Part shown: in pieces, positions 7,957 to 54,405 of the stretch
Layout of the letters: every line of letters starts with the position of its first letter
How positions within the stretch are numbered: position 1 is the first letter of the stretch
Assembly: GCF_030684315.1 (NCBI RefSeq)
Contig: NC_081361.1
Location: forward strand, 14,683,861-14,747,860
Source: Stegostoma tigrinum
Taxonomy: Eukaryota
DNA: 64,000 bases
Direction of reading: 5' to 3'
Notes under the pieces: generated by a model
Seen by the model: the letters and a program-made list of their open reading frames with translations, nothing else
Database searches by the model: none
Told to the model about the DNA's origin: nothing
Program-made: the position numbers and the translations under genes

Positions 7957-8292
7957 AGGTGGCACAATGCTGCTGCCTCACAGCACCAGGGTCCCTGGTT
8001 TGCTTCCACCCTTGGTGTCTGTGTGGAGTTTGTACATTCTCTGTGTATGCATGGGTTTCCTCTGGGTGCTCCACTTACCTCCCACAGTCCAAAGATGTGC
8101 AGGCTAGGTGGATTGACTTTGCTAAATTGCGTCGTAGTGACCAGAGATGTGCAGACTAGGTGGGTAAGCCATGGGAAATGCAGGGTTACAAGATAGGGTA
8201 AGGGAGCTGCGTCTGGGTGGGATGCTCTTCGGAGGGTCACTGTGGACATGATGAGCCAGTGGCCCCTCTCTGCACCGTATGGATTGTATGTA
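7957..8292 (+). mobile_element. HE1-type SINE, near full length
   Basis: GGTGGCACAATGCTGCTGCCTCACAGCACCAGGG head, CCTCCCACAGTCCAAAGATGTGCAGGCTAGGTGGATTG body with internal duplication, CR1-like 3' tail. Confidence 0.85.
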
Positions 8293-13344: not shown

Positions 13345-13530
13345 AATAGGAACCAAAAGAACTGCAGATGCTGGAAATCAGAAAGACATGGAGATACGCT
13401 GGGAAAGCTCAGCAGGTCTGGCAGCATCTGTGGAGAGGAATCAGAGTTATTGTCTCGGATCCAGTGACCCTTCCTCAAAACTGATCTGGAACTGCAACAC
13501 TGGCTGAGTTTTTCCAGCAATTTCTGTTTT
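13345..13530. mobile_element. Penelope-like pseudo-LTR fragment (partly fold-back), nested in the Harbinger relic
   Basis: AGAACTGCAGATGCTGGAAATC...CTCAGCAGGTCTGGCAGCATCTGTGGAG...GGATCCAGTGACCCTTCCTCA followed by the inverted arm GCTGAGTTTTTCCAGCAATTTCTGTTTT. Confidence 0.65.
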
Positions 13531-14575: not shown

Positions 14576-14892
14576 AGATTAGATTAGGTTAGATTCCCTA
14601 CAGCGTGGAAACAGGCCCTTTGGCCCGACAAGTCCACACCACCCCTTGAATCATCCCACCCAGACACACTCCCCTATAACTCATACACCCCTGAACACTA
14701 TGGGCAATACAGCATGGCCGATCCATCTAGTCTGCACATCTTTGGACTGTGGGAGGAAATCGGAGCACCCGGGGGAAAACACACGCAGACACAGGGAGAA
14801 TGTGCAAACTCCACACAGACAGTCGACCGCTGGAATCAAACCCGGGTCCCTGATGCTGTGAGGCTGCAGTGCTAACCACTGAGCCACCGTGC
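14576..14892 (-). mobile_element. HE1-type SINE, full length, with (AATCT)n tail
   Basis: Reverse complement starts GCACGGTGGCTCAGTGGTTAGCACTGCAGCCTCACAGCATCAGGGACCCGGGTTTGATTCC (A and B boxes); tail AGATTAGATTAGGTTAGATT on +. Confidence 0.9.
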
Positions 14893-15239: not shown

Positions 15240-15570
15240 CCGCACAGAATCCTTAGTGTGCAAGCAAGACACATTTGGCCAATCGAGACCACACCAACCC
15301 ACTCACCTACCCCTGTCACCCTGAATTTCCCATGGCTAATCCCCAAGCGTTCACATTGATGGGAACTACAGTCAATTTAGCATGATCAATCCACCCTAAC
15401 CTGCAGATCTTCAGGCTGGAGAAGCAAATCGGAGCACCTGGGAGGAAACCCATGTAGACATGGGGATAGTGTGTACACTCCAAATAGACAGTCACCCAAG
15501 AGTGGAAGTGAACCTGGATCCCTGGCTCTGTGAGGCAGCAGCGCTAACCAATGATCTACTGTGCCACCAC
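15240..15570 (-). mobile_element. HE1-type SINE
   Basis: Same head and body as 14576-14892, more diverged. Confidence 0.8.
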
Positions 15571-16189
15571 AAAGATCACTTATGGTTTGTAGAGTCAGCT
15601 GGTTTACTTTGCAAATTCTTGTCTGAAGATGTGGCTATTCTGCAAGCCCTAAAGAGAACCTCTATGGTCATTTCTTCACCTTAATCCTTTAATCGTACTT
15701 GGACATTGATCTAAGTTTCAAAAATTACCACAGTACATGAATAATGGTCTGCACATGCTTCAAGTCCCTCAGTCAAAAAATATTTAAAACATTAAAAAAA
15801 AAGCAAGCTTCCCATATTCCTCACTACCTGAGTCTCAATGACAAGGAAAATTAAAAATTGACTGACTGGCACCAAACTGTGAGAGTAATTGCTAAAAATT
15901 GATTGAATCAAATGGTTATGAATCTCCCTGCATCAAAAACATTGACTGAATCAGATTAAAAACATCCGTTTTCACATCAGCTCTCCGTGAGTGTACATTG
16001 ACATTTATGTAATGGATTTTTCCGCTTTATACATAAAAACATTAGTTTTAAAACGCATTAGAGAGTCACACGTGCCTATAAATATTCTATTCTACCCCAA
16101 AAACACATACTTGTGCAAGCCCTCAGAGATGATCACTTGGTAAAGTGGTTTCTGAAGTTGTCAAGTTACTTTCTGCATCACTGTATTAG

Positions 16190-16442: not shown

Positions 16443-17879
16443 TCCTGAGTTTTAAGCACAGTTTCGGACTGCAATACTCAAATCAGGCTGACAGCACAAC
16501 TGCCTCGGGATATATGGTTTCCCAGAGCAGTGCTGATTTTTAGAAAAACGAGGTGCGGGAGAGTAACAAGCTACAACTACCTGGGAGGTGGGAGATGGAA
16601 ATCACAAACCAAAACTTCTATTTTCCTACTCTCTGCTGCTGCCTGGCCTACTGTGTTCCTCCAGCTCCACACTGTGTTATACCTGGGTGGGCTGCAACGG
16701 GAGGTGGAGGTGGGCTGAGGGTTGGTGATATCCAGGGCACGCTGTTGATTTGGGACAATGAAACTGGAAAAAAAAGTGGACATGGTCATTATTTGAGCTC
16801 CCAAAACAAAAAAAATGCAGCCTTATTTCATACTTGCATTTGCAAACATTTATAACCTGCAGCAACTTGTTTCTCCCTGTAGGTTCCTCCCATCCACCTT
16901 GCCTCAACACTAGGTGTCTGAGTGGACGTCAAAACAGCAGAAAGTCAATGATGCTGAACTGTAAAATCATATTTTTTTCACAATTATGCTATCTCAGCCA
17001 GCTGTAAGCATGAGGCAGCACTCATACTAAACCCCATTAGAGAGATGACAACACAATACATTATATTCAATTGGATCATTTCCGGTTTAGATCGTGAGTT
17101 ATGTTCTGACACATTTGTGCTATTTCTGCCCCCCACATGCTCCCTCTCATTCCTGCCTCACTGAATTTCCATCTTTTATTTTATGCTCTCCTTTCAGTCT
17201 AAGTTGTCACACTACTTTTATGTCGTTCCCATTTCCATCTCCATTCTGCAACTGCCACCTTTTCTCCTACTACCCAGTGTGATTCTGCTTGCGGCATTCT
17301 GGCTCCATTCATTTTCACGGACCCAAACTTTCACAGATTTTCACATGTTTAATTCAGGTGTCAAACATGCCATGTCAGAGGCATGAGGTGATCAAGAGGG
17401 CACTGGATGGTTACTTGGATAGAATTAACGTGCAAGGAAATGAGGCAAAAAAAAGAGGAGATTGGCACTGCTCATGTGAAAAAAAGCAGCATAGGCATGA
17501 TGGACCAAAATGGCCACCTACCATGTCAACACTTCTGGTGAAGGTGCTGTGGGGAGGAGGCGTAGGGGAGTGGGGGAAGATATAACGCCAGGAGCTGGGC
17601 TGTCATTAAAAAAACCTCAAAATTTCCTGGCTTGGCCCACCAGCCTTGAAACAACATGACTTCAAAAGATGGAATTTTCAGTGGAGGGAGGAAAAGGTGG
17701 GCAGCAGAGAGGCCAGTCAACCTAGCAAAGTGTTCAGAGATAGCCACATGAGCCACCGGGTGCGACCAGCGTATGTTGAATGCTCACATTATTGCTACAG
17801 AGTACAGACAAACCCTTATCCCCATTCATGCACCACACTGTCCCACTCTATTGCTCTTCACCAACTCTCATACCTCATG

Positions 17880-20280: not shown

Positions 20281-20689
20281 CTCACTCTCAAATGCAAAAT
20301 AAAATTCTATCATATTATGATCACTCTTCCTCGGTAGCTGCTTTAGTAACAAGTTATTAATGAACTCTTCCTCACTTTTCAATACCAGGTCTAACATAGT
20401 CTGTTAGCTTGTTGGCCGTGCTGATTAAGAAATCTGTTTTTTTCTCCCTCCCAAATATGTCCCACACAGATGGTTTACTGAGCCTCCATGATGAACCTTT
20501 CTCTGATCCTCTTATAACTTTCCCTAGCATATATCTCTCTTTCGTTCACTAATACTCTGTTCAGCACTGCAACCAAAAGGATGTATGACCTGCTTTTCTC
20601 AACTCCATCCAAACATCTTCCATATAACGAGACTCTAAAATGTTATCCTTTCCATTCCCTTTTCCCATCCTCTCATTTCTGAGCTGCCT

Positions 20690-20835
20690 TCCTCCTCCCC
20701 CATTTCTGAAGAAGGATCCCGACCTGAAACGTCAATTTTCCTGCTCCTCTGATGCTGCCTGGCCTGCTGTGTTCCTTCAGCTCCACACTGTGTTATCTTT
20801 GACTCCAGCATCAGCAGTTCTTACCATTTCTAACA
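20690..20835 (+). mobile_element. Penelope-like pseudo-LTR fragment
   Basis: CCCCCATTTCTGAAGAAGG...CCTGCTCCTCTGATGCTGCCTGGCCTGCTGTGTTCC...GTGTTATCT...CCAGCATCAGCAGTTC; same family as 33236-33716. Confidence 0.75.
20706..20733 (+). ncRNA. Minimal hammerhead ribozyme core (PLE-type), best-preserved copy
   Basis: CTGAAGA-AGGATCCCGACCT-GAAAC-GTC: CUGANGA box, stem II (AGG/CCT), GAAA box, palindromic ACGT stem III, GUC cleavage triplet; stem I weak. Confidence 0.6.
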
Positions 20836-22150: not shown

Positions 22151-23679
22151 AAAATTATACATTGTTGTTATTTGCATTTCCCATCATTTTGCAAAAGTAT
22201 GTGGAGATTGGTTATCAAAATGTATCGAGTCATTGTGATCATTTTCAGCAAAAGCAAATTCCTTTATAAAGATTGCATTAAGTGTTAGAAAACTAAAGCC
22301 TGCATTTCTGCCATGATTGGATAGGAAAAGAATCAGATTCCTTAGCGCGTTTGCCTTATGGTATTTCGGAGTACATCACAATGACAGCACAACAGCTGTG
22401 AAGATTGGGAATTCTCACTGATATCACAATCTGACATTGAATCTAACATCTGAATTGAAAGGAGAACTTTAAAACTTGCAGAAGAAACTGAAAACTACTT
22501 CAGAGACAGTGTAATTATCTAAGTAGATGCTAATTGATGTGTACAGAAATCAGGAGTACTTGCAACTTGGGTACAATTTAAAGAAAATGCATGAATTAAA
22601 ACAGTACAAGCTGAAGCACTGAGAAATAAAAACAACACTTCACACATAGGATACAAAAATTGCAAACTTTGAGACAGTGGTAAATTGGTTCAGACAAAAA
22701 AAAAAGTTACTTTTTCCTTCCAATACATACATACATACATATAGAGTTTCACATGAAGTTAATAAAATGGCCCAGGAATCCCAGTGGGAAGTCATTGATG
22801 TAGCAGCAGAGATTGAAGTGGTGTGTCAGGATCATGTGGAATCCTTAACATATGTACCTCCCTGGGAGATACCAGAGAAATTTACATTTCCTTTCGACAG
22901 TAAGTAGGCATCTAGAACCCTCTGGAAAAGTTGGAAAGGTCCCAGGCTCTGAGCTAGCAAAGATTTCAAAGGGTTGCTATTCATTTAGGCTTCATCACCA
23001 ATCAAGAAAGTACTAGAGAATTTAAAAACTGCTCTCACTCCTGGCTAGGGATTGGGCTGAATCCCTGACTCATCACCAAATCTTCTCTGCCACTCTCCTC
23101 CCACAGCTACACCTCCCTGATCTCGCACGCACCCTGCCATGTGATCCCTCAACCTACTGTAAACCCTCATCCATTGATCATGTGCATTGTGATAGCCACC
23201 TAAACCTGGTATTCCTCTCACCTAAGATAACAAGGTGAAGAGCTGGATGAACACAGCAAGCCAAGCAGCATCATAGTAGTGGGGAAGCTTCTCACCTACT
23301 TGGCTTCCTACTTTGCAAATCAGTTGGCATTCTAGCCCCTCAGGTACCTGGCACTTTGACCCTAAGCTCCTGCCACACGTGCATCCTGTCAGTGGGTGCC
23401 AAAATGGCTGCAGGACATTTATACCACAGCATATGCTACCTTCTTCTCTACTGGTAGTTGGGGCTTCTACTCTTGCTGGTTGAGCATTCCTGAATTGCTG
23501 CTGTGCAACATAAGACTCTATACCCCAAACAAACAGACATTTGAGTGTAAAATGGATCAGAAGGTTTCTTTTTGTCCAGTCAGGATCAGAAACAGTGTTC
23601 CAATCCTGATTCAACACATTTGAGCCTATAAGCATTCAGGATTTTGTCTGGTAATTGACTGGCTCATGCAAATTGTTTC

Positions 23680-24010
23680 ATGGAATCATAGAATCCCTAC
23701 AGTATAGAAACAGGCCATGCAGCCCAACAAGTCCACACTGCTTCCCACAGCGTCCGACCCAGACCCATCCCTCGACCTTTTCCCTGTAACCCTGCATTTC
23801 CCACGTCTAATCCACCCAGCCTGCACACTACCATCATTTTTGTATGACTAATCCACCCTAGCCTGCACCTCTTTGGACTGTGGGAAGAAACTGGAGCACC
23901 CGGAGGAAACCCACACAGAGGGAAACATGTAAACTCCACACATGCAGTTGCCAGAGGGTGGAATTGAACCCAGGTCCCTGGCGCTGTGAGGCAGCAGTGC
24001 TAACCAGCAA
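23680..24010 (-). mobile_element. HE1-type SINE
   Basis: Reverse complement GGTTAGCACTGCTGCCTCACAGCGCCAGGGACCTGGGTTCAATTCC head; tail CATGGAATCATAGAATC on +. Confidence 0.88.
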
Positions 24011-24594
24011 TGTCATGCTCAAACAACATGAAGAGAAATCACAAAGTAAACTGTGTTCCCTTCTACATTTCCATGCAAAAGTTCTGTTTCTATTAAAACA
24101 AGTGGACAAATTTGCTGGTCTTAAAACGGCTGAGTATGATCACACGAATGCATTTCCAGAAGCTTCTGAACTCCTTCCATCGTACAGAGACTTCAGCTAA
24201 AGCTGACATGAAGGGACTTGGAGAACAGCCATCTGCTTCCAAACAGCTGTGGACAAAGGAAAACGTCAAGATCCGTTATGCAAAACAAAAGCACAGATTC
24301 TTTTATAGAGCTTCCATTGTGTGCTAACTAATGGGGGGAGTCAGAGCTACAGTGTTTTGATTAATGATTTTTAATTAGCCTATTGAGATGGGCCATCGGC
24401 ATCCAAAATGTCTATCTTTATAGCCTGACTGCACTTAGAGCTGGTTAAAATTGCTTAACATTATAGGAGCTGAAGTCAGTTGCTGTTTCATCTCCCAGAG
24501 TGGAAGCAGGACACCAGGTAGAGTCTGCATTCTGCCTCAGAGCGTCCAGCGCGCCCTCTCTCTCTCACACACACACACACACAAACTGCCACTT

Positions 24595-25050: not shown

Positions 25051-25403
25051 CCCACGTCTCCTCTCCTGCTTTCGCTCATGTCTGGAGTATATACATCTTA
25101 CGATTGGTGAAGCAATTGCCCTGCCTTTTGAAATGTTTCTTCTTTGTAACCCCTGTGACTTCATCTCAAAAGAAGTGTTTTGCTATTTTAAAAATTGGAA
25201 TGCGAGAACAAGGGTCTGAGCAATACCCTTCAGTAAGAGAGAGGAGGTAAAAAGAGAAACAAGAACACCAAGCAATACTTCATTGCTTTGACTTAGCAGG
25301 GGAAAGGTCTTTCTAATTTAAATTCATCCCCTTTTTCCCCATTATGGTAGAAAAACAAAATAATACCTTTACAAATCTATTAATTGGAGAAATGACTAAC
25401 CTA

Positions 25404-26536
25404 TGGCTGGGAACACTATTGTTCGAGTACGATAGATGGGTCAGTTTTTGTCCAGTGTGTGCAGGAGGGCTTCCTGACACAGTATGTAGACAGGCCAACA
25501 AGGGGCGAAGCCACATTAGATTTGGTACTGGGTAATGAGCCCGGCCAGGTGTTAGATTTGGTAGTAGGTGAGCATTTTGGTGCTAGCGATCACAATTCTG
25601 TTATGTTTAATTTAGTGATGGAAAGGGGTAGGTGTATACCACTGGGTAAGAGATATAGCTGGGGGAAAGGCACTTACGATGAGATTAGGCAAGAATTAGG
25701 GAGCATAGGATGGGGAAGGAAACTGCAGGGGATGGGCACATTAGAAATGTGGAGCTTATTCAAGGAAAAGCTCCTGTGTGTCCGAGATAACTATGTACCT
25801 TTCAGGCAGGGAGGAAGCTATACAGCATGGTAGCCGTGGTTTACGAAGGAGGTGGAATCTCTGGTCAAGAGGAAGAAGGCGGCTGATGTTAGGATGAAAA
25901 TGTGAAGGCTCAGTTAGGTCACTTGAGGGCTACGAGGTAGCCAGGAAAGACCTAAAGAGAGAGCTCAGAAGAGCCAGGAGGAGACATGAGAAGTTGTTGG
26001 CAGATAGGATCAGTGTAAACCCTAAGGCTTTCTATAGGTTTTTAAGGAATAAAAGAATGACAAAAGTAAGTTTAGGGCCAATCAAAGATAGTAGTGGTAA
26101 GTTGTGTGTGGAGTCAGATGAGATAGGGGAAGCGCTAAATGAATATTTTTCAACAGTATTCACTCTAGAAAACGACAATGTTATCGAGGAGAATACTGAG
26201 GTACAGGCTACTAGACTAGGTGGGATTGAGGTTCACAAGGAAGAGGTATTAGAAATCCTAGAGGGTGAAGATAGATAAGTCCCCTGGGCTGGATGGGATT
26301 TATCCTCAGATCCTCTGGGAAGCCAGGGAGAAGATTGCAGAGCCTTGAGCATTGATCTTTAACTCGTCATTGTCTACAGGAATAGTGCCAGATGACTGGA
26401 AGATAGCAAATGTGGTTCCCTGTTCAAGAAGGGGAGGAGAGACAACCCTGGTAATTTTAGACCAGTGAGCCTTACTTCAGTTGTTGGTAAAGTGTTGGAA
26501 AAGGTTATAAGGGATAGGATTTGTAATCATCTAGAA
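25404..26536 (+). mobile_element. Outer CR1/HER1-type LINE, 5' part (endonuclease end to start of RT), pseudogenised
   Basis: ORFs 25459..25833 (QEGFLTQYVDRPTRGEATLDLVLGNEPGQV...GASDHN) and 25994..26278 (NPKAFYR...EALNEYFSTVFT); frame resumes at 29244. Confidence 0.92.
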
Positions 26537-29240
26537 CATAGAACAGTACAGCACAGAACAGGCCCTTCAGCCTACAATGTTGTGCCGACCATTAATCCTC
26601 ATGTATGCACCCTCAAATTTCTGTGACCATATGCATGTCCAGCAGTCTCTTAAATGACCCCAATGACCTTGCTTCCACAACTGCTGCTGGCAACGCATTC
26701 CATGCTCTCACAACTCTCTGTGTAAAGAACCCGCCTCTGACATCCCCTCTATACTTTCCTCCAACCAGCTTAAAACGATGACCCCTCATGCTAGCCATTT
26801 CTGCCCTGGGAAATAGTCTCTGGCTATCAACTCTATCTCTGCCTCTCATTATCTTGTATACCTCAATTAGGTCCCCTCTCCTCCTCCTTTTCTCCAGTGA
26901 AAAGAGGCCAAGCTCAGTCAAACTCTCTTCATAAGATAAGCCCTTCAGTCCAGGCAGCATCCTGGTAAACCTCCTCTGAACCCTCTCCAAAGCATCCACA
27001 TCTTTCCTATAATAGGGTGACCAGAACTGGACGCAGTATTCCAAGTGCGGTCTAACCAAAGTTTTATAGAGCTGCAACAAGATCTCACGACTTTTAAACT
27101 CAATCCCCCTGTTAAATGAAAGCCAAAACACCATATGCTTTCTAAACAACCCTGTCCACTTGGGTGGACATTTTAAGGGATCTATGTATCTGCACACCAA
27201 GATCCCTCTGTTCCTCCACACTGCCAAGAATCCTATCCTTAATCCTGTACTCAGCTTTCAAATTCGACATTCCAAAATGCATCACCTCGCATTTATCCAG
27301 GTTGAACTCCATCTGCCACCTCTCAGCCCATCTCTGCATCCTGTCAATGTCCTGCTGCAGCCTACAACAGCCGTCAATACTGTCAATGACACCTCCGACC
27401 TTTGTCGTCTGCAAACTTGCTGACCCATCCTTCAATCCCCTCATCCAAGTCATTAATAAAAATTACAAACAGTAGAGGCCCAAGGACAGAGCCCTGTGGA
27501 ACCCCACTCACCACTGACTTCCAGGCAGAATATTTTCCTTCTACTACCACTCGCTGTCTTCTGTTGGCCAGCCAATTCTGTATCCAGGCAGCTAAGTTCC
27601 CCTGTATCCCATTCCTCCTGACCTTCTGAATGAGCCTACCATGGGGAACCTTATCAAATGCCTTACTGAAGTCCATTTACACCACATCAACAGCTCGACC
27701 CTCATCGACTTTTCTAGTCACATCCTCAAAGAACTCGATAAGGTTTGTGAGGCATGACCTGCCCCTCACAAAGCAGTGTTGACTGCATTTGATCAAGCCA
27801 TGCTCTTCCGGGTGGTCATAAATCCTATCCCTCAGAATCCTTTCTAACACTTTGCAGACGACAGACGTGAGAATTACTGGTCTGTAATTGCCGGGGATTT
27901 CCCTATTTCCTTTCTTGAAGAGAGGAGTTGCATTTGCCTCTCTCTCCAGTCCTCAGGTACGACTCCAGTGGAGAGCGAGGATGCAAAGATCTTCGCAAGT
28001 GGCAAAGCAATTGCATTTCTCGCTTCCCAAAGCAGCCGAGGACAAATCTGGTCCGGGGCTGGCGACTTGTCAATCTTAGTGTTTGACAAAATTTTCAGCA
28101 CCTCAGCTTCCTCTATCTCTATCCATTCCAGCATGCACACCTGCTCTTCAAAGGCTTCATTCACTACAAAGTTCGTTTCTTTCGTAAAGACAGAAGCAAA
28201 AAACTCATTTAGGGCTTCCCCTACCTCCTCAGACTCCACACACAAGTTCCCTATGCTATCCCTGATCGGCCCTACTCTTTCTTTGACCATTCTCTTATTC
28301 CTCACGTAAGTGTAAAATGCCTTTGTGTTTTCCCTAATTCGTTCCGCCAAGCCTTTCTCGTGCCCCCTCCTGGCTCTCCTCAGACCAATTTTGAGCTCCT
28401 TCCTTGCCTGCGTGTAATCCTCTCTAGCTGAACTTGACCCTAGCTTCCTCCACCTTATGTAAGCTACCTTCTTCCTTTTCACAAGAAGCTCCACCGCTCT
28501 CGTCATCCAAGGTTCCTTTATCTTACCTGTCTCAGAGGGACATATTTACTCATCACTCGCAACAACTGTTCCTTAAACAGTCTCCACATGTCTATAGTTC
28601 CCTTACCATCGAACAATTGCTCCCAGTCCATACTTCCTAACTCATGTCTAATCGCGTCATAGTTTCCTCTTCCCCAATTAAATATCCTCCCATTTTGCCT
28701 AATCCTCTCCTTCTCCACAGCTATGTAGAATGTGAGGCAGTTATGGTCACTATCACCAAAATGCTCTCCCACCACAAGATCTGATACCTGCCCCGGCTCG
28801 TTTCCAAGCACCAAGTCTAGAATGGCCTCTCCCCTCGTCGGCCTGTCAACGTACTGCGTTAGGAAACCCTCCTGAACACACCTTACAAAAACAACTCCAT
28901 TCAAATCTTCTGCTCGAAGGAGGTTCCAATCAATATTAGGAAAGTTAAAGTCACCCATTACAACAACCCTACTGCGTCCACACTTTTCCGAAATCTGTCG
29001 ACCTATGCTTTCTTCAATCTCCCTGCTGCTATTGGGGGGGCCTGTAGTAATCCCCATAACGAGGTGACTACTCCCTTGCTGTTCCTAATTTCCACCCGCA
29101 CTGACTCGGTAGGCAGATCTTCCTCGACAATGGAAGCTTCTGTAGCTGTGATACCCTCTCTGATTAGTAGTGCTACACCCACTCCTCTTTTTCCCCCCCT
29201 CCCTATTCTTTTTAAATGTTCTAAACCCTGGAACATCCAG
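26537..29240 (-). mobile_element. Inner CR1/HER1-type LINE, 5'-truncated, inserted in opposite orientation
   Basis: Minus ORFs 28518..29057 (MGDFNFPNIDW, SDHN), 27874..28506, 27383..27676 ([28 protein letters not shown]), 26613..27227 (YKTLVRPHLEYCVQFW); (TTCTATG)-type tail; TSD CATCTAGAA at 26528-26536 and 29244-29252. Confidence 0.95.
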
Positions 29241-29243
29241 GAA

Positions 29244-30532
29244 CATCTAGAAACGAATAATTTGATTAGGGCTAGTCAGCATGGTTTTGTGAAGGGTAGG
29301 TCATGCCTCACAAACTTTATTGAGTTCTTTGAGAAGGTGACCAAACAGGTAGATGAGAGTAAACCGGTTGATGTGGTATATATGGATTTCAGCAAGACGT
29401 TCAATAACGTTCCCCACAGTAGGCTATTGTACCAAAAGTAGAGGAATGGGATTGTGGGAGATATAGCAGTTTGGAACAGAAATTAGCTTTCTGAAAGAAG
29501 ACAGAGGGTGGTGGCTGATGGGAAATGTTCATCCTGGAGACCAGTTACTAGTGGTGTACCGCAAGGGTTGGTGTTGGGTCCACTGCTGTTCGTCATTTTT
29601 ATAAACGACCTGGATGAGGGTGTAGAAGGATGGGTTAGCAAATTTGCAGACGACTAAGGTCGGTGGAGTTATGGATTGTGATGAAGGATGTTGTAGGGTA
29701 CAGAGAGACAAAAACAAGCTGTAGAGCTGGGCTGAGAGGTGGCAAATGGAGTTTAATGCAGACAAGTGTGAGGTGATGCACTTTGGTAGGAGTAACCGGA
29801 AGGCAAAGTACAGGGCTAATGGTAAGAGTCTTAGCAGCGTAGAGGAGCAGAGAGATCTCGGTGTCCATGTACACAGATCCTTGAAAGTTGCCACCCAGGT
29901 TGGCAGGGCTGTTAAGAAGGCATACAGTGTTTTAGCTTTTATTAATAGAGGGATCGAGTTCTGGAACCATGAGGTTATGCTGCAGCTGTACAAAACTCTG
30001 GTGCGGCCACACTTGGAGTATTGCGTACAGTTCTGGTCACCGCATTATAAGGAGGATGTGGAAGATTTGGAAAGGGTGCAGAGGAGATTTACTACGATGT
30101 TGCCTGGTATGGAGGGAAGGTCTTACAAGGAAAGGGTGAGGGGCTGGAGGCTGTTTTTTGTTAAAGAGAAGAAGGTTGAGAGGTGACTTAATTAAGACAT
30201 ATAAAATTATCAGAGGGTTTGATAGAGTGGATAGGGCAAGCCTTTTTCTTAGGATGGTGATGGTGAGCACGAGGGGGCACAGCTTTAAATTGAGGGGTGA
30301 AAGATATAGGACAGATGTCAGAGGTAGTTTCTTTCCTCAGACAGTAGTAAGGGAACGGAACGGAACGCTTTGCCTGCAACGGTAGTAGATTTGCCAACTT
30401 TAGGTACATTTAAGTCGTCATTGGACAAGCATATGGACATACATAGAATACTGTAGGTTAGATGGGCTTCAGGTTGGCACAACGTTGAGGGGCGAAGGGC
30501 CTGTACTGTGCTGTAATGTTCTATGTTCTATG
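29244..30532 (+). mobile_element. Outer CR1/HER1-type LINE, 3' part (RT to tail)
   Basis: HLETNNLIRASQHGFVKGRSCLTN..., ORF 29746..30186 (MEFNADKCEVMHFG...RPHLEYCVQFW), tail ATGTTCTATGTTCTATG. Confidence 0.93.
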
Positions 30533-33235: not shown

Positions 33236-33716
33236 CAGATAGTAGGAACTGCAGATGCTGGAGAGTCTCAGATAACAAGGTGTAGGAGTTGGATGAACAC
33301 AGCAGGCCAAGCAGCATCAGAGGAGCCGGAAAGCAGACATTTCGGGCCTAGACTCTTCTTCAGAAATGTGGGAGGGTAAAGGGATCTGAAATAAATAGGG
33401 AGAGATGGGGAGGCGGATAGAAGATGGATACTGGAGGGAGGCTGTCCTCCCTGGACTAACCTATCCCCTCCCAAACTCCCCACCTACACTCACCTTTACT
33501 GACTCCATTCCCATCCATTTGGCCTGTCTGTCTCCTCTCCACCCACCTTCTCCTCTGTCCATCTTCTCTCTGCCTACCCCTCTTTCCCCATATTCTTCAG
33601 AACCCCTTTCCCCTCCCCCATTTCTGAAGAAGGGTCTAGGCCGGAAACATTGGCCTTCCTGCTCCTCTGATGCTGCTTCGCCTGCTGTGTTCATCCAGCT
33701 CTACACCTTGTTATCT
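33236..33716. mobile_element. Penelope-like fold-back element with two hammerhead cores
   Basis: Arms 33270-33440 and 33540-33716 are inverted copies; cores at 33336-33363 (-) and 33624-33651 (+); flanking TSD CAGTTTCRRTGATCT at 33221-33235 and 33717-33731. Confidence 0.8.
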
Positions 33717-34779
33717 CAGTTTCAATGATCTGTCTGACAATGACAATGACAGTCACTTGCAACCTGGCTTCAAGGCTTTGGTCAGGGAAATTTTCCAATA
33801 TTTTCAACTTTGCCAGAAATTCATGCTTTTAGCGACCCAACATCTGATTATAAACCAGAGTTTGTCCGAAACACAAATAATAGAAGATATTAATCTGAAA
33901 TAATTATTTCAGGAGGTCTTGTTATCTTGTCTGTAACATGAACGTTTTTTCAGCAGAGCTCAAACATTTAGAAATTCTGATCTATGCAAGAAGAGGAGAA
34001 TATGTTACAAACATGGCAGAAACTTGATACATTGTTCCATACTTCATGAGCTGATTGTCAAAGAAAACGAGGATAAAGCATACTTCAATAATATTCCATG
34101 ATTTAATGTACTTGCATGAAAATCCTTCAAAGGAATTGATTTTCTGATCTTACGATTGTGGAAAAACAATAAAATGTTAAACTGAATAGCTTTTATGAAC
34201 CTATTCTGAATTGGACTGCTATATTGTATGGTGGGATAATTAGATTCCGGAATAATTCATTTTATTCCATTAGACCATTGGGTTTAATCTAATTGAGAAA
34301 TTATTTATAGGGTCTGCATTTAACCCAGACATCAGCTGTCCTCTCACATTGCTTTCATCCACAGCAAACATATTTCTTTGCTGCACATTTATTAGGTTGT
34401 GATCTTTTCATAATTCCCCAAAGATTTGTGTGCACAGTACATCTGTACCATAAACGGATATGGTTAAACGCCAAGATGTCATTGCCACCCACACATTGCA
34501 AGTGGTAACACCAGCAATTACAAACAAACCGAGAATAGCAAGAAACTATGTATATTGAGGCCCATTATTGCCTAACACAAAAAGCACAGAAGCACTTGCA
34601 AATCTTCCAACACTCTTCTTCCTCAACTAATAGTGCAGCCTTTCATTTCCTTTACCCTCAAATGCTCATCTACATTTTTCTTAATACAGTATCTCTAATA
34701 TCCTTTTCTAACACACTGGGGTAATGCAATTTAAAAATCAGGCCCCGTTATTCCTAAATGACCAAGTGTCTTTTTTTTT

Positions 34780-35411: not shown

Positions 35412-37817
35412 GTAAATCCATGTTTAAAAAAAAAGACAGTTATTTCTCATTGCAACCCATAGTTTTTAAAAGACACAACAGAAAAAAGGGCATGGCCTTC
35501 AGAAGTCTATGGTAGAATATTTCACATTGTTATCACTCGACTAAGGAAGCTTCATTTGAATTCCCTACTCGATTTCTTGGCATCTCCTCATGTGGATGAC
35601 TTTTTTAGATAGTAATCCAATTCCACTTCAAAAGCCTCAATTGATTCTGCTTCCACCATGCTGTTAGGCAGCACATTCAATTTCCTCTTAACCAGCCGAG
35701 AGAAAAATATTTTCCTCATGTCACCATCGATTCCTCTGATTACCTGCTGATTGTGCCCTCTATACACGTTTTACAGGGTACCAAACAGCCTATACAATGT
35801 CCACGGGGAGGGGAACGCTGCAGTCATCCTCAGCATTACCAATGGAACAGATATCCAGTATCCTTTTATTTCCTATGCTTAGCTCAAGATGCTTTGCACA
35901 TGCTAGTTGTTGCCTAAGTTAGTGACTCTGAAAAGACTAATGTTGGAGATTGCATTAAGCTCATGACAATTTGATGTTATACTGGTTTTGGTGAATCTAA
36001 GGCAATACATCTTAGAATCTTGTGGGGTGCAGTCCTACATACACATCTTCCCTTTTACGTGTTAGTAGCACTTGTCACTTTGTTAATTTTACTTGGACCT
36101 TACTGCTTATAAACTATGTTTGGTTAAGGCCTGAGCTTTTTCTTGTTAAGAATCAACATTGATGGGTCCTTACCCACAATAAACCAAACATGTCTTTAGA
36201 CCAAAGTGAGGGAAAAAGAGGAATAGTGCACATCTATGTATCCACGAGTAGTGCATAGTGATCAGCAATGGGCATCATTTATTAATAAAAACCAAAATAA
36301 CTGCGGATGCTGTAAATCATTTATTAATACCTCAAAATACAAGAATGCAAATCCCTTGGACCCAGAGGAAGAAATTTCCAGAACACCAGGCATGTTTACA
36401 GCTTTAAAGACACTATCGTTTTAAAAACTGACCTATTAAGAGCAAACAGCTGCATGTATCTGAACAAAGAAGCAATCAGCGGGAAATTGCGGAAAGACCA
36501 ATAAGGGAGAAAGGCACTCCAGAGATGGTAAGGTGTGCAGATTAGAAAGAGCTTAAAGATTTGTCTCACCTGGCAGTGACAGTTTCTAGTATCGAGCTCC
36601 AAGGACTTTATGTTTCAATAGGTCACCCCACATTCTTCAAAATTCCAACAAATAAAGGCCCAACCTTGTCAACCTATCCTCAAGGCAGTTCCCCCATATC
36701 TCTGGGCTGCTTCCAATACCATACATCTTTCCCTTTATCAGGGGAACAAAAAAAAAACTTCCTTGTGCTCCAGTTTTGGTCTGATGAGTTCTTTATATCA
36801 ACTGAGCAATGGAACTGTTCTAAGACTCCATGCCCTTTGAAATAAAGGCTGACATTTCATTTGACAGCCCAGTCACCAGGTAAGGTCAAATACGAGCTTT
36901 TTGTGATTCATGCTCGAGGAACCCAGATTGCTGTGCTGCAGCTTTCTGCTTTCTCCACTTAAATAATATTCTGCTCCTCAATTCTTCTGGCCAAAGTGCA
37001 TAACGTCACATTTTCCCCACATTACATATCGGTCAAGTTTTTGCCCACTTTAATTAGCCTGTCTATATCCGTTTGCAGACTCTTTGTACCATTATTAATT
37101 TATCAAGTGGCGACAATCAAAACAAAAATAGGCAGGAAGGCAAGCATTTAATCCTACCGGAAAGTAGCTAAGTGTGCCTTTTAGCAAGCTTAATAGAGGG
37201 TTTCTATCCAAAAGCCCTAGCACGTTTTCTCACATTATCTTCCCAAAGACCCCTCGCCATCTAGGTGCCATACCCCGAAGGCACATCACTCATCTTAAGC
37301 GCCCACTCACCACAGCTCAGATTTTGAGTGTGACAGAATTTCTTGGGAATTCTGGCTTTGGCACCATCCTTAACCTCGAATTGCACACCCAGTCAGGGGC
37401 CGGCAGTCTGTCATTCCACTGCATGGCTCATTTTTATCTGCCCTGGCCACATTCTGCCTTTTCAATCCACTTTATCATGGTGAAGCGGAGCTCCTGGTGG
37501 ATGAGAGTTGCATGCATGTGTCCATGCATTGTGCCCCGAGTTGTTCTTGACCAATAGAGGTCTGGAGGAATCTAGAAGCGAGCTGGAGTTGTCAATTAAC
37601 AGCTACGACCTTCAGTTTGGGCGTCCTAGTCATCTAACTTCTATTCAGTTGGTGGGAGAATGGGAAACTGCATACCAGTGAGGTGAGCATGTAATAAAGA
37701 GCATGTTAATACACAACATAATCACAAGCAAGAATTTCATTTCATCGTTTAGTACTTTGATGGCAAGTACAATTTTGTTTTGCTCTTAGGGTTGAAAAAC
37801 ATATGATTTTGCCAGTG

Positions 37818-38007
37818 ATAATGGGAACTGCAGAATCCAAGATAACAAAAAGTGTGAAGCTGGATGAACATAACAGGCCAAGCAGCATCTCAGGAGCACA
37901 AAAGTTGACATTTTGTTGAAGAGTCTAGGCCCGAAACGTCAGCTTTTGTGCTCCTGAGATGCTGCTTGGCCTGCTGTGTTCATCCAGCTTCACACTTTGT
38001 TATCTTG
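37818..38007. mobile_element. Penelope-like fold-back mini-element
   Basis: Near-perfect inverted arms (ATCCAAGATAACAAA...GAGCACAAAAG / CTTTTGTGCTC...TTATCTTGGAT); central decayed hammerhead 37913-37940; exact 13-bp TSD GATTTTGCCAGTG at 37805-37817 and 38008-38020. Confidence 0.85.
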
Positions 38008-38089
38008 GATTTTGCCAGTGCCTACATCATTTAGTGCCTGGGTAGGAACCCTCCAAATTTAGCTCAGGGAAACCACTCAGAACAATTAG

Positions 38090-38860
38090 TCAAGGAATAA
38101 ACCATTGTTGTCCATTTGGTCAAGGGGTAACCAATAGAACATTTCAGTGGGCCTACAGCCTGTTATAGAACAGTGAGACCCAAAAGTTCAGGTATATAAT
38201 TCTTTGAAGTTTGAATCACACATAGACATGGTGGGTCAGAAGGCATTTAGCATGTTAGCTTTCATTGTTCAGACCTTCGAGCATAACCTTTGAGACATTA
38301 CGTTGAGGTTGTACTGGATGTTGTTGAGTCCTCTTCTGGAGTACTGTGTCCAGTTCTGGTCTCTCTCTCTCTCTCTCTCTCATAGGAAGGATGTTATTAA
38401 ACTAGGAGGGTTCAATAGAGATTTACCAGAATGCGGCTGGGAATGGAGGGTTTGTGCGATAAGAAGAGACTTTTTTTAACTGGAGAGTAGGAAGTTGAGA
38501 GGAAGAGATAAGGTGAATGGTGAGTGCCTTTTCCCTCTTCCCACCTTCCTGAGCATGTGTGCCAATGTTAATTCACAATTCAAATATCACATTGAGTTTG
38601 AATAGGAGAAGGTTTGGCGGGATATGGGACAAATACAGGGAGCTGCGACAAGTTTAGTTTGGGAACACGGTCAGTGTGGTCTGGTTGAACCCAAGAGATA
38701 ATAGGAACTGCAGAGAATCCGAGATAACCAGGTATAGAGCTGGATGAACACAGCAGACCAAGCAGCATCATAGGAGCAGGAAAACTGGCATTTTGGGCCT
38801 AGACCCTTCATCAGAAAAACTCTTAAGGATCTGTTTCCATGCTGTATGACTAATCATAAA
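38090..38860 (+). mobile_element. CR1 3' fragment containing a (CT)n run, a templated insertion and a Penelope fragment (38694-38815)
   Basis: CTGGAGTACTGTGTCCAGTTCTGG (LEYCVQFW); tail TGTTTCCATGCTGTATGACT. Confidence 0.7.
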
Positions 38861-40446: not shown

Positions 40447-40592
40447 AATAATGGGAATTGTAGGTGCTGGAGAATCCAAGATAACAAAGTGTGAAGCTGG
40501 ATGAACACAGCCAGCCAAGCAGCATCTCAGGAGCTTTTGCACTCCTGAGATGCTGCTTGGCCTGTGTTCATCCAGCTTCACACTTTGTTATT
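40447..40592. mobile_element. Penelope-like fold-back mini-element (core deleted)
   Basis: ATAACAAAGTGTGAAGCTGGATGAACAC...CATCTCAGGAG / CTCCTGAGATG...GTTCATCCAGCTTCACACTTTGTTAT; TSD GACAGTTAGC at 40437-40446 and 40598-40607. Confidence 0.8.
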
Positions 40593-41578
40593 TTAAAGAC
40601 AGTTAGCCATCTGTTTACCTCCTCTTCCCACCTTCCTGAGCATGTGTCCCAATGTTAATTCACAATTCAAATATCACATTGAGTTTGATGATGGAATCAC
40701 AAGTATTATGGGTGTTTGCTATATTCGAACAACATAACACTCATAAAAGGTAGTATAAATATTAATATTTTTGAACTGCTCATTTTCCTTTCAGGAGGGG
40801 TGTATTCCCCTCACATATGTATGAAGGAACACAGTGAATCTTCCAAATGTTCTACCTGGCTTTTATGAGTTCAGGTAAAACAAGAGAAAAATCTTCCCCT
40901 TCACATGCCTTACCTAGCAAGGATCTACCTACCATTTTTTGAAAATGTTTCAGGCACTGTGATTCAATCACTATTTCAGGAAAAAAACATTCCAAAGACT
41001 CTTGATCCTCAATTTCTTCTTTCCTTCTTTTTTTGAGCTCTTATTTATCAACAGTGATCCCAAATTCTGGATTGTCCAACAACTGGACTGTCAAAATCCC
41101 TTAAAATCTTGCATGTTTCAATACAAAGTTAGTGTCTAACCTTTCCTCATAAGACAATTCCAATAAACCTGAAGGGTCTCCAGTGTGTTTATATCCTGCT
41201 TTAAATATGGTAAACACCTGCTGTGCAACATCCTTCCAATGTATAGCCCTGTAAAACTGAAGCATAAACCTCCCTAATTTTGGATTAAATTTGCCTTATG
41301 ATAAATGACAACATTCTGTTACCTTACTAACTTCTTGTTGTACTTGCATGCTAACCTGTTGCGTTTCATGCATGAGGAAACTCAAATTCCTTTGCATTTC
41401 AGATCTCATCAATCCCTCTTCGTAGCACTTAGTTGTGTGTTAGATAACCACACAAGGAAGAGAGAAATTTAAGGCAAATTAAATGGTATTTGATGTTACG
41501 AGGTGAAAAAGGAGGCTCCAAGGCCTCCTTAATAATCCTGGAACGTATTAGCAATTAAAAGCACAGAACTGGGTGATA

Positions 41579-41795
41579 CAATGTGGAGTTGAGAAACACG
41601 GCAGGTCAGGCAGTGTCAGAATAGGAGGAGGAGAAGAGTCGCTATTTCGGGCCTTGGCCCCAATCAGGGCTAATGAACAGTCCAGGCCCGAAGTGTTAAT
41701 TCTCCTCCTCCTCCAATGCTGCCTGACCTGCTGCGCTCCTCCAATCTACATTGTATCAACTCTGACTCCAGCATCTGCAGTTCTTGCTGTCTCAA
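41579..41795. mobile_element. Penelope-like fold-back mini-element, older subfamily
   Basis: Inverted arms GGCAGGTCAGGCAG...AGGAGGAGAAG / CTCCTCCTCC...GCTGCCTGACCTGC; TSD AACTGGGTGATA at 41567-41578 and 41796-41807. Confidence 0.7.
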
Positions 41796-44370: not shown

Positions 44371-45998
44371 CCAGAGCTATTGGATGACGAAAGCACCCAC
44401 AATGTACTACAGCAAATATTTTGAATCCACCTGTTCGGATGCATCGCTGGTGCAGCGAGGACTTGAACCTGGGGCCTCATTGTCCAGGGGCAACACCACA
44501 ACCACTGTACCATAAGAGCTCTAAGGTGAACTTAAGTGCTCAGAAGATCTGAATACACATTTTAAAACCGACCTGTCTGTAGGTCCAATTCTGAGCATTT
44601 TACAGGACAGGAGGATGAAAATAAGAGCAAATTGACATCAACTAGATGCTACTTGTGTTGAGTCAATAATCTCAGAAATACAAAATGTATCCCTTAACTA
44701 TGTCTAAAATGCCTTGACACATTACTCATCAATAGTATCGAACGGCAGCATTAGTGGTCCATAATCAAGCTTCAGTTCAGCTTTGCTCTCACAGCATAGA
44801 GGGAAGTTTTTTTACAACGTTGCATCTAATAGTCCAGACCAAACCGAGAGCACTCACCTGACAGGCCTTCCAATGGCTGGCAGCCAATAGCCCACGGCCC
44901 CAAACACGCAACTTTCTGCTTTTGCAGTCAAGTTCTCAACCAGTTTGGCTGTGAGACAATGCTTGACGTGCTTTCAATTGCAAAAAAAACAGCTTCAAAT
45001 TGATGTTATTACTTTACAACAAACCCACTGAAGTTGAAAATTTTGGCAGGGTCTGTCCTGCCACATCTCCCTGGACTAATTCTCTGTTGCTAAGCCCATT
45101 AGTTTCGACAGAAAACACTTCCAAACTCTTTTCGCAAACTCAGGGAATTTGCTGCGCAGCATCAGTCAGACTCACTGCAAACATCATCTTTCACAAATAA
45201 CGAGGTGAAATTGGGTGGGTCTCTCTGGTATTGGAGTGAAAGAAAATGAATATCACTTCCCAGCTGCAGAACATATTTCCTCAGGTTGAGTTGCTAAATT
45301 AGTCATGCTGGTAACATTAACAATTCAGTAAGTCTGCCCATTTTTAAAATTCCAGTTGTGCATGTTTGCTTGCTCTGATTTGTAGTGCTGATTGGGTCAG
45401 CATCTGTTCCCCACCTGTTTGTGATTACTTAACGATGTGTCTGTACTCTACCTTGTGGGGAGGAGCCGTGGCTGATTGGGTTAAAGTGAACAAGCAATCC
45501 TGAGTTTGAATTTCACTGATGCTTTTACCTATTTTAAAAAAAAACAAATCCAGATTTTACCTTTGCCTATGAACAGCAGGATTCCGTTTCATCTTTATTT
45601 ACCTGTGAAGAGCAGGGCTTTAAAAGTACCTTCGCTATACTGTACTACAGACAGAGGCCTAATAAAGCAGATCTCCAATCCTCTCGCAGATTACATATAG
45701 CATGTTCTGAATCCTTCAGGATTCTAAAGGCTTAGTGGGACTACTGATATCAGTTGAAATATTTGATTTTTTTGTCGGCACTTGGGATAGCTGTAAACAC
45801 CTCTAAGCTTGATACTTTTGTATCTTTTGTTATCCACGAACTGAAATTAATATCAATACTGAATGACCTGCTACACGACTCTCCCCATCTGATATCAATA
45901 ACTTAGATTAATATCAATATGACAGATTGGTAAGGTGTCCACACAATGCCTTCGGCAGAAGATGGCTCAATCTTGGTAAACTGGACAGAATTATTATA

Positions 45999-46160
45999 GA
46001 TAACAAGGTGTAGAGCTGGATGAGCTCAGCAGGTCAAGCAGCATCAGAGGAGCAGGAAAGCTGATGTTTCGGGCCTACACCTTTCTTCAGAAAATTTTCC
46101 AAAGAAGGGTCTAGGCCCGAAACATCAGATTCTCCAGCATCTGCAGTTCCTACTATCTCT
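45999..46160. mobile_element. Penelope-like mini-element with back-to-back hammerhead cores
   Basis: Cores at 46063-46090 (-) and 46099-46126 (+); TSD CAGAATTATKATA at 45986-45998 and 46165-46177. Confidence 0.8.
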
Positions 46161-46857
46161 GAGGCAGAATTATGATATAACACTTAACCAGATATGTGTA
46201 CATATATTATATATATCTGAGGTACATGTTATGTACCTTATGTACATGCAGGAGTAGCTACGTGCTCTTAGCAGTAGCAACACTGGAACACTAATTAGCT
46301 TTTCCCAGGAGCAGGGCTGAGGGGCTGAATTTATCGTCTGACGTCAGTTGCTTTCAGGTGCTTACTGCCGTCTGCAACAACCAACATTTTCAATGGTGAA
46401 AAGATTACTGCCTCAAGCATATTAATGTTCTGTTAACAATTCTTTTCCAAAATACTTTGGTTGTGATGAAAGTGGGTTAGAATATTCTCATCTAGCTTTC
46501 GGATCATGAACTTCGCTGCCCGAGTCCATAACCTTGCGTTTGTCCTGCCATTTAAGTTTGACAAATTATTTCCTTGGCTTCTTTTACTTTGCTTCCATTT
46601 ATCCTCCATATTAGTTTCCCTTACTATCTGGCCAGTGCATAGAATATCTTCCCTCACTTCCAATCTTCAGTTTTTCATTTTAAAAACTTTGATTAATTTT
46701 ATACATGTTGGGGTATTGCAGCAGGAGTAGCTTGTTCAGCCTGATGAGCCTGTTCTACCACTGAATTTGACCATGGTGTGTTCTCTATTCTCTCCTCCCT
46801 CCAAATGTTAACGCATTTATTTCTCTACTGCTGCCAAACTCTGTGAACCCTCTCTCA

Positions 46858-48925: not shown

Positions 48926-49639
48926 ATTCAGTCCTGTGTGCACTCTTCCCACTGGCCCTGGGCTAGTCTTGCATTGTGTACCATCTGTTTCTGAGACAAA
49001 AATAGAAACAAAACCTCAACGCTAATAAAATTGAATGAAAATGACCAAACAGAATAGTTTAAAAGTTATTAATGAACTTTCATTAAAGAAATTTTCTGCA
49101 ATCTGTCTGTTTCTGTGAACCCGCAACTTTCAATGGGTTGTTCCTTGTGCATGTAAGGTGGTAGGCAACAAGTTAACTTTGCAATCATGAGTGCTCATTA
49201 ACAGCAACCTGAGGCAAAGCGTACTTTATTACTGAAGGTTGCTGTTACTAGTCTGTAACAGCTGTTACTAAGGGGTATGATGTTTAAAATGTAAAATCCA
49301 GTGCCTTTTCCAGAGCATTCTGCACTTTCTTTTCAATTGCCCTGAATCAACATTCTATTGTTGGAGTAAGTTCTTTCTAGAAGCCAAAAACAGTTAATGT
49401 GCATGACAGCAACTTGCATACCATGTATCCCTTTAGGTCACGCACCATCCTGACTTGACATCTTATGCCTGCCTACATGCAGGGTTAAAATCCTGCAACT
49501 TCCCATACCACATCATTGTGGAAATGTACCACCTATCTCTGTGCACTTTTCAGCTACTTGAAGAAAGAAAACCAGCTTATATTTCCTTCATTAGATGCTG
49601 CAAGCTGAGACTTGGAATTGGACATGTCAGGGACTATTT

Positions 49640-51595: not shown

Positions 51596-51729
51596 TTGAA
51601 ATACTATATCGCTCAAAGGGGCTTTTACAGTTCAGATGTGGACAGGATGTCTCTTTCTGGAGTATCCAGGATTAGGGATTTCTGCTGAAAAAAACAGGTC
51701 ACCCCATTTAAGAGATGGGATAATTTGTT

Positions 51730-51934
51730 CAGAGATAGTATGAACTGCCGATGCTGGAGTCAGAGATAACACAGTGTGGAGCTGGAGGAACACAGCAGGC
51801 CAGGCAGCATCAGAGGGAGCAGGAAAGCTGACACTTCAGGTCAGGACCGTTCCTCAGAAAATGTCTGACCTGAAATGTCAACTTTCCTGCTCCTCTGATG
51901 CTGCCTGACCTTCTGTGTTCCTCGAGCTCCATGC
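51730..51934. mobile_element. Penelope-like fold-back mini-element inserted in a CR1 3' fragment (51600-52180)
   Basis: Inverted arms around a decayed core at 51830-51857 (-); TSD TGGGAWAATTTGTT at 51716-51729 and 51935-51948. Confidence 0.78.
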
Positions 51935-52789
51935 TGGGAAAATTTGTTTTTGTCTTAGAGTCTTTGTGCTCTGAAAAACTCTCTCTACTTGAAAAGGTGG
52001 CAGAAATAGAATCTTTGAATATTTTTGACTGAGCTGTATAGATTCTTAGAAAGCAAGGGAGCTGAAAGGAGCTCAGCAGGAATGTGGATTTTAGCATGCA
52101 ATACGATCTGCCATGATTTTATTAAATAGCAGAGCAGGCTCAAGGGGCTGAATGGCCCACTCCTGCTCCTTTGTTGGTCCATTTGTACGACATGTGCAGT
52201 GCCTGTGTGGTGATTATGCTGTGCCTGAAAATGGGGCGCAAATGGATTGCTGTCACATTCTGTTGCGAAAAGAACAATTGATGGAATAAATCTGAATTAA
52301 GTCTGCATCTAAGCCTGAAACATGAGTTGGGTTTTGACATTGGTTTAAATGCGGCAATTATGAGAATCCGTTTTCAATCATTTAACAGTAAACACTGCTA
52401 GGTACATCTGACTGAAGCAGACTGATGTCCACATATCGTCTTGAGATGTTTTCTGACTACCGATGGGAAAGTAGCAAAGTGTGCCGTAATTACCAACCGT
52501 GTTTTGTGAACAGGATAGAAGGGAACAGAGTTCAATTGCCCAGTTATCATTGCTGTTCCCTTATCTCTTCTGTAATGGGCATCCTTCAGAACACCTATGA
52601 AGGATGAAGTCCCGTTCACCCTATCACAAGCTTGCCTTGTCAAATAGTGACAAGGGCTGACTTGTTTGACCTTGAAACAAACCTACTTAATGGTCTATCT
52701 TTCGGGTAAATGGGCAATATCAAAGAAACAAATTGTTGTAAGTGCCCCAGTGTTGATTACCCAGGATGTTGGCAGGAATAGAGGGTCTG

Positions 52790-54134: not shown

Positions 54135-54405
54135 CTCATAGAATCATAGCATTTCTATGGAGTGGAAGCAGGCCATTTGGCCCATCTAGACCACACCGAC
54201 CCTCTGAAGAACATCCCACCCAGACCCAGCCCCCTACCCTATCCCTAAAATCCTGTATTTCCCATGGCCAATCCACCTAACCTGCATATCTCTGGGCTGT
54301 GGGAGGAAACCTGCACAGACTGCGTGTGCAAACTCCACACAGACAGTCACCCGAGGTTGGAATCGAACCCGGGTCCCTGGTACTATGAGGCAGCAGTGCT
54401 AACCT
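54135..54405 (-). mobile_element. HE1-type SINE
   Basis: Reverse complement GGTTAGCACTGCTGCCTCATAGTACCAGGGACCCGGGTTCGATTCC (canonical B box); CATAGAATCATAG tail on +. Confidence 0.88.

Follow-up and report, generated by a model that had tools for sequence, protein, structure and literature searches.

The hammerhead-like motifs dispersed over this stretch of shark DNA are best explained, with a probability of roughly 0.7, as decayed minimal hammerhead ribozymes (min-HHRs) in the pseudo-LTRs of a Penelope-like element (PLE), whose RNA would be capped 4 nt before the ribozyme core, copied mostly uncut and, in a minority of molecules, cut with the aid of a protein. The repeat that carries them is the pseudo-LTR of an endonuclease-bearing PLE, encoding a reverse transcriptase (RT) and a GIY-YIG domain, and the motif is thus of a known kind, which works and sits like the PLE minimal hammerheads described in 2014 (PMC4209133). 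Its copies in the window, i.e. the whole 64-kb stretch analysed here, are dead relics, and copies would in general be passive once inserted. Yet the more than 100,000 intact cores elsewhere in the genome provide enough insertion junctions to read the RNA start, the priming sites and possibly the cut, and this junction record names the exact constructs to test.

A preliminary description of the window had named nine sites, and the letters are as given there at all nine. The motif by which it characterised them, CTGANGA and GAAAYRTH on either side of stem II, is matched exactly at four (20706 and 33624 on the plus strand, 33336-33363 and 46063-46090 on the minus strand), but the other five deviate. 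None of the nine is a fully intact hammerhead, and that most copies have mutated cores had been correctly cautioned. Only the site at 20706 combines both catalytic boxes with the stem III palindrome, in a minimal type I core (20706..20733, plus strand) with a 2-bp stem I and a stem II damaged by one mismatch and one wobble. Core changes affect G12 and U16.1 at 38787, U4 and G5 at 46099, C3 and A6 at 37913, and C3, A13 and U16.1 at 13445, while the changes at 51830 lie in A15.1 and G10.1 (core or closing pair). Repeat mapping further reduced the "about nine cores" to seven insertions: the minus-strand core at 33336 and the plus-strand core at 33624 are two arms of one head-to-head insertion, as are those at 46063 and 46099, and 37913 and 51830 belong to arms of fold-back insertions. 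The list was also incomplete, having overlooked a decayed pair (41578-41793) and three core-less copies (40448-40594, 16623-16680 and 23222-23279).

Counting C3 of the core as position 0, with the predicted cut after +27, the copies can be laid out as follows. A solo family A-old copy on the plus strand (20675..20831) spans -30 to +127, including a 33-35 nt tail at about 20798-20831. The head-to-head pair at 33 kb consists of a tailed left arm (33237..33436, minus strand, -74 to +125, core 33336-33363) and a right arm that lacks the tail (33444..33723, plus strand, -180 to +99, core 33624-33651), and no clear target-site duplication was seen at this pair. A fold-back insertion of family A-young (37813..38009; minus arm +21 to +128, plus arm +1 to +96) lies within an exact 13-bp target-site duplication, and a short minus-strand copy with a dead core (38694..38817, -3 to +127) covers the predicted RNA leader in full, as far as the distal RT start. 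The core-less fold-back insertion at 40448..40594, with a flanking duplication, has a plus arm that starts at +28, the base after the predicted cut, where the join shows 3 nt of microhomology; the decayed, older head-to-head pair at 41578..41793 has a flanking duplication as well. In the head-to-head insertion at 45998..46162, inside a duplication of ~15 bp, the minus arm runs from -3 to +92, and the plus arm (46096-46162) runs from -3 to +29 and resumes in the tail, at +92 to +129; this junction connects the base that follows the predicted cut with the proximal RT start. The insertion at 51722..51935, also head to head and within a ~12-bp duplication, pairs a tailed minus arm (-3 to ~+128) with a plus arm from +17 to ~+80. 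The family B copy (13345..13482, minus strand) has a 4-bp stem I and three core changes, with a short inverted piece just upstream reaching ~13530, and two core-less fragments complete the set (16623..16680, plus strand, +32 to +90; 23222..23279, minus strand, +38 to +95). Altogether, flanking duplications of 12-18 bp were found at five of the nine window units examined.

Besides, the window contains repeats of other kinds. Broken LINE-type pieces with endonuclease and RT, which we take to be CR1/L2-like, lie at 25400-30530, 46900-48960 and 50100-50850, two of them inverted to each other at ~70% identity. A dispersed repeat of ~300 nt, presumably SINE-like, occurs at 8-190, 7969-8290, 14586-14890, 15294-15575, 23678-24018, 54136-54417 and 63185-63292, and a 68-nt direct repeat (38534-38601 and 40621-40688, 99% identity) has its copies 2,087 nt apart.

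Beyond the window, we used a blind sample of 95 stretches of 10 kb each, placed at round coordinates on large contigs (950 kb, the first set comprising 550 kb). That the motifs are chance matches, or the repeat unrelated to PLEs, might be argued from an Rfam scan of the window (E up to 10), which returned hairpin-type matches on fold-back insertions and no hammerhead family, as well as from the lack of any PLE protein relic within the 64 kb. This reading is nevertheless refuted: a strict descriptor (both boxes and a stem II of at least 3 bp, stem I unconstrained) gave 49 matches in the 550 kb versus 0-1 per shuffle (10 shuffles), and one match in the window versus a shuffled mean of 0.04 (50 shuffles). 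The copies also share homology over 100-280 nt, and at many loci the repeat runs on without a break into RT and GIY-YIG.

Indeed, the best genome matches to the copy at 33.6 kb lead on their upstream side into broken ORFs in which RT motifs, a CX4CxxC linker and GIY-YIG are recognisable, so that the link to Penelope, which had been proposed from the window letters, is confirmed by relics upstream of the same repeat elsewhere in the genome. On these broken copies, Pfam scored GIY-YIG at 22.6 bits (at the cut-off) and RVT_1 at E 9e-4 (below the curated cut-off), with no match in two of five element fragments. In the blind sample, GIY-YIG ends are followed in most cases listed by a family A or B core 210-350 nt downstream, of family A in most and of family B in three. 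The order typical of endonuclease-bearing (EN+) PLEs, in which the pseudo-LTR comes after an ORF that encodes RT and, at its C-terminus, GIY-YIG, was thus found on broken copies, together with partial tandems, an inverted 5'-truncated copy and a 30-40 bp tail at one end (45/47 pairs). At about half of 30 loci chosen by their ORF start, the same repeat stands in tandem ahead of that start, which identifies the repeat as the pseudo-LTR and the tail as the first 33-35 nt after it. The CX2-5CxxC linker between RT and endonuclease that marks Neptune is present, as CX4CxxC, in the translations of L032, L034 and L035, and this motif, the one feature on which the assignment is based, would place the element among the Neptune PLEs. 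A Poseidon label for families A and B was dropped after the linker check.

The long ORF starts after the tail. Upstream, a frame of 27 codons opens at ~+47 and closes where the tail ends in seven of seven copies translated (L057, L058, L064, L070, L074, L080 and L115), in frame with the long ORF where copies are unshifted; it may be an upstream ORF or a site of read-through. Predicted folds join the stretch near +45 to the tail in a helix of 9-11 bp in a family A copy, shorter in family B (in the window, 20746-20756 with 20805-20815, and equivalents), and this helix, which lies close to the RT start sites, is a candidate protein-binding structure.

The published min-HHR descriptor specifies CUGANGA with an optional extra base, GAAANNUH, stems I and II of 3-7 bp each, a loop of 3-10 nt and the pair G10.1-C11.1 in stem II, and a palindrome at 15.2-16.2 for the stem III of dimers, which would cleave themselves after NUH (PMC4209133). 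Both boxes are present in the subfamily majority and in the 82 strict matches of the 950 kb. Stem II falls within these bounds, with 4 bp and a 4-nt loop in family A and 6 bp in family C. In a covariation alignment of 19 hand-picked related rows, from the window and four families and with one row misaligned, 80% of stem cells were paired and seven of eight pairs had changed on both sides, against 12-45% paired in slid controls; for stem II alone, the values were 87% and three of four. The stem III palindrome (15.2-16.2) is intact in 47 of the 82 strict matches, the remaining 35 being CpG transitions. Stem I is where family A departs from the descriptor: it measures 2 bp in 60 of the 82 (45/48 in A-young, 9/14 in A-old), so the earlier caveat about a weak stem I in the main subfamily was well founded, and we file family A as a min-HHR variant on account of this shortfall. 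Stems of at least 3 bp occur in 15/82, mainly in family C (10/12) and family B (2/5), and families B and C can reach the published length. The AGTT/AACT stem I noted previously at 13445 is likewise real, at 4 bp, in a copy of the sister family B. Monomer folding of five stretches gave z values from +0.64 to -1.51 and formed stem II in family C only; in the family A and B stretches tested, the minimum-energy fold did not contain the hammerhead.

Family C is a separate PLE lineage with its own GIY-YIG (L131:8475, L159:626, L162:7956 and others), and its hammerhead has a 6-bp stem II and a covarying stem I of 3-5 bp. No family C copy was seen in the window, and the family C copies in the rows listed do not show the short start at -4 described below.

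The ends of the copies are informative about the RNA from which they were made. We retained 118 of 147 pseudo-LTR matches in the first set, namely those covering +55 to +75, and 203 family A pieces in the full 950 kb. Of these, 63 begin at -5..-1 (29/118 in the first sample and 34/85 in the second), a tally that treats each arm of an insertion as a copy of its own and in which BLAST places the ends to within 1-3 nt. These ends are preceded by flank or an inverted arm. In the genome as a whole, four non-consensus bases precede a start at -4 in 7,022 exact young copies. Among 100 of these matches listed and judged by eye, the base before the start is G in 83, and in 24/41 after removal of 59 rows that inverted-arm context could explain; the window composition predicts ~26%. 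A non-templated G at the 5' end is a mark of an RT reading a cap. A capped RNA start at -4 is therefore likely, and the bases around -4, as we read them, resemble initiator or TCT consensi in three subfamilies. With such a start, the 5' strand of stem I could be no longer than 4 nt and, given an internal promoter in the pseudo-LTR, would consist of the first 4 nt of the transcript. By eye, stem I might be lengthened distally through pairing with sequence near +47, but the 5' partner lies upstream of the presumed start, and this extension was dropped. A match of the core to downstream promoter consensi was out of register, and we make no claim of it.

The -4 boundary might instead reflect RNA processing, at a splice acceptor or by a nuclease, or stem from a short, SINE-like master of its own. 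In Drosophila virilis, the end of an intron maps to the 5' end of helix I (PMC4209133), and a long pyrimidine tract lies upstream here. We consider this improbable, as the -4 ends abut flank or an inverted arm without any shared exon or leader, AG is not what precedes -4, the additional G agrees with a cap, and the boundary is common to A-young, A-old and, by inspection, family B.

At the other end, the 203 pieces fall into two clusters, 103 ending at +85..+100 and 79 at +120..+137, with five between, which matches the two RT start sites demonstrated in vitro for an anole element (PMC11167929). Moreover, 45 of 47 adjacent head-to-head pairs (24/24 and 21/23) bear a single tail, at one of their ends, and in no pair are both ends tailed; this asymmetry would have a probability of ~1e-11 if arms were independent (by-eye counts, hand arithmetic). 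The pairs lie mostly inside visible duplications of 10-15 bp, and each pair thus represents one event with two primings, one per site. A plausible course of events would be that the element protein makes nicks 10-15 bp apart in the two target strands and starts reverse transcription close to the RNA 5' end from two priming sites, ~+92 and ~+127, and that the two short cDNAs, on reaching or nearing the RNA start, are joined head to head. This would explain why the commonest insertions are pseudo-LTR pairs of 60-135 nt with a tail at one end. Two RNAs in one particle could, in addition, pair via the stem III palindrome and be cut after C17, which would remove a capped leader of 32 nt.

At the cut itself, the blind sample shows no peak, with 6/203 starts in +26..+30 (five in the first sample, one in the second), about the background level (82 over 56 positions). 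Genome-wide, the copies starting behind three non-consensus bases number 3,201 at +28, compared with 489 at +30 and 181 at +26. The four bases after the cut form a palindrome, and among 100 of the +28 matches listed, 65 are fold-backs on it and 11 show other microhomology; the +28 excess hence derives mainly from microhomology joins. The remainder, ~770 when scaled, is 1.6-4 times the +30 and +26 controls, which carry contaminants of their own, and no obvious microhomology accompanies the +28 start in about 5 of 20 inspected loci (17 independent). For fold-back joins, we counted 709 centred just after the cut; two control palindromes gave 47 (stem III, 5 nt upstream) and 23 (20 nt downstream), and 4-nt microhomology is common to all the joins compared. 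Cut RNA would yield a cDNA ending in the post-cut palindrome, so that this excess fits cleavage; RT stalling at a folded, uncut hammerhead, near +28..+31, could fit it too. The fold-back excess is hence suggestive of cutting in vivo, short of proof, and we give slightly better than even odds to family A being cut in vivo at all. In an old, non-palindromic subfamily, a search at the cut site gave 288 matches without a control position, 8 of 20 inspected being a variant with an extra base. In one old subfamily, stem I is shifted by an additional A immediately behind the predicted cut (L201, L203, L204, L207, L208, L212, L213 and L219).

In a serious, albeit less probable alternative, the element is the same but the family A hammerhead is catalytically vestigial, its core being kept as a downstream promoter element or protein site immediately behind the RNA start and the +28 joins reflecting RT stalling and microhomology. 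The 2-bp stem I, the missing hammerhead in predicted monomer folds and the origin of most short copies from uncut RNA all agree with this, as do published findings: the Penelope pseudo-LTR has an internal TATA-less promoter with a downstream element (PMC2377424), one of nine Xenopus dimers was cut in vitro (bioRxiv 10.64898/2026.07.22.740005) and many PLE clades thrive without a hammerhead (PMC8557442). However, both partners of the inner stem I pairs and of stem II differ from one family to the next, which points to an RNA structure rather than a DNA element, and the control palindromes give 15-30 times fewer fold-backs. Conversely, and tentatively, the hammerhead may be viewed as the first 32 nt of a capped mRNA and as a protein-gated decapping switch, in which a protein dimer would hold two mutually cutting RNAs and prime both target strands at two fixed RNA sites. 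If true, hundreds of thousands of tiny head-to-head insertions would record, like fossils and at base resolution, where the RNA starts, where it is cut and at which two sites it is primed, and would provide the first sign of a PLE minimal hammerhead cutting in the germ line.

The "very large genome-wide pool" of ribozyme relics anticipated from the window does exist. The 82 strict cores in 950 kb scale to ~276,000 in the genome (bootstrap 209,000-350,000), and the intact family A core, defined by a 4-bp stem II and the palindrome, has an exact count of 114,869. For coelacanth and Xenopus, ~4,000 and ~9,000 min-HHRs were counted in 2014 (PMC4209133), values not directly comparable with those of the shark because the descriptor used requires a stem I of at least 3 bp, which family A fails.

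Is this a working pool? Host transcripts with two copies might be cut, or tandem units might act as retrozymes via circular RNA. Apart from the 114,869 intact cores, this would be favoured by two tandem arrays in the first 550 kb, near-identical and with their cores intact, and by a retrozyme family reported for one chondrichthyan (bioRxiv 10.64898/2026.07.22.740005). One array (L130:4982-5845) has 2.9 units of 301 bp at 99% identity and the other (L115:7219-8434) 2.7 units of 443 bp at 97%; in both, the unit comprises the pseudo-LTR and the ORF start with an intact core. Both arrays appear retrozyme-like and may serve as ready-made natural dimers. Yet a working pool is quite unlikely overall, and we hold an action of dispersed copies on host RNA to be just as doubtful. 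No window copy is intact, and close pairs are mostly on opposite strands (27/33 in the first sample), so that a transcript contains a single sense core. G12, which lies in a CpG, is lost in 15/80 young and 28/83 old copies, and all 11 core positions are kept in 50/62 young and 25/62 old core-spanning copies. The private mutation rate of A-old is the same in core and flank (6.3% vs 6.5%, p 0.87): old copies decay neutrally. In A-young, the core is lower (1.2% vs 2.7%, p 0.013), probably through residual subfamily variation; an initial comparison (1.2% vs 5.8%; 6.3% vs 11.6%) was rejected as confounded by subfamily differences. Of the changes diagnostic for A-old, by contrast, none falls in the core, four in N7, the stem or the loop, and 12 downstream. 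Since diagnostic changes spare the core and private ones in A-old make no distinction between core and flank, the masters retained the motif, which decayed once inserted. Core conservation above the flanks, which had been expected of a genuine hammerhead, thus applies between families but not within the old subfamily, whose core mutates as fast as its flank.

How, then, does the shark element compare with known systems, as far as these are covered by the accessible parts of the sources? On shark PLE hammerheads, or on start and cut footprints in genomic copies, the accessible literature offered nothing beyond the one chondrichthyan in bioRxiv 10.64898/2026.07.22.740005; the accessible text of PMC4209133 does not name sharks, and the function of PLE hammerheads has been called unclear (PMC8557442). 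With the min-HHRs of 2014, the motif shares the catalytic boxes, a bulged base before stem II, G10.1-C11.1, an absent loop III and the palindromic stem III, as well as the pseudo-LTR position, the many dispersed single copies and the opposite-strand pairs, whereas the main family has a stem I of 2 bp instead of the 3-7 asked for, and stem II has 4 bp here versus 7-8 in Schistosoma (PMC4209133). Dimers of min-HHRs cut weakly (PMC4209133). The Penelope element of Drosophila virilis similarly combines a 2-bp helix I (PMC4209133) with an internal promoter and a start inside the pseudo-LTR (PMC2377424); its start, however, lies upstream of a 75-nt intron ending at helix I, and its helix III is extended (PMC4209133, PMC2377424), while the RNA here seems to start 4 nt before the core and no intron was seen.

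The anole element of the in vitro work, Poseidon PAc of Anolis carolinensis, is a further close parallel. There, too, two RT start sites define a tail of 30-40 nt, both target strands are cut and extended, and uncut RNA is the main template (PMC11167929), features which we infer for the shark element. The PAc hammerhead cuts in vitro only with protein and is dispensable for insertion (Frangieh et al. 2024, PMC11167929). Differences concern the ORF, which starts in stem II in PAc and here, following the 27-codon frame at ~+47, after the tail; the cut, for which the accessible PAc account reports no reads beginning there (PMC11167929), whereas genomic joins are enriched at it here; and the linker, which is of Neptune type in the shark. 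With Neptune EN+ PLEs, the element shares the RT, the CX2-5CxxC linker and the C-terminal GIY-YIG, along with partial tandems, an inverted truncated copy and a one-end tail (PMC8557442). Finally, non-LTR retrozymes (bioRxiv 10.64898/2026.07.22.740005) consist of at least two tandem units each with a complete hammerhead, and double cleavage of their RNA would yield circles. The window copies, solo or head to head and not in tandem, differ from this arrangement, but the two tandem arrays found elsewhere, L130 and L115, conform to it, being pseudo-LTR-derived and having an intact core in every unit.
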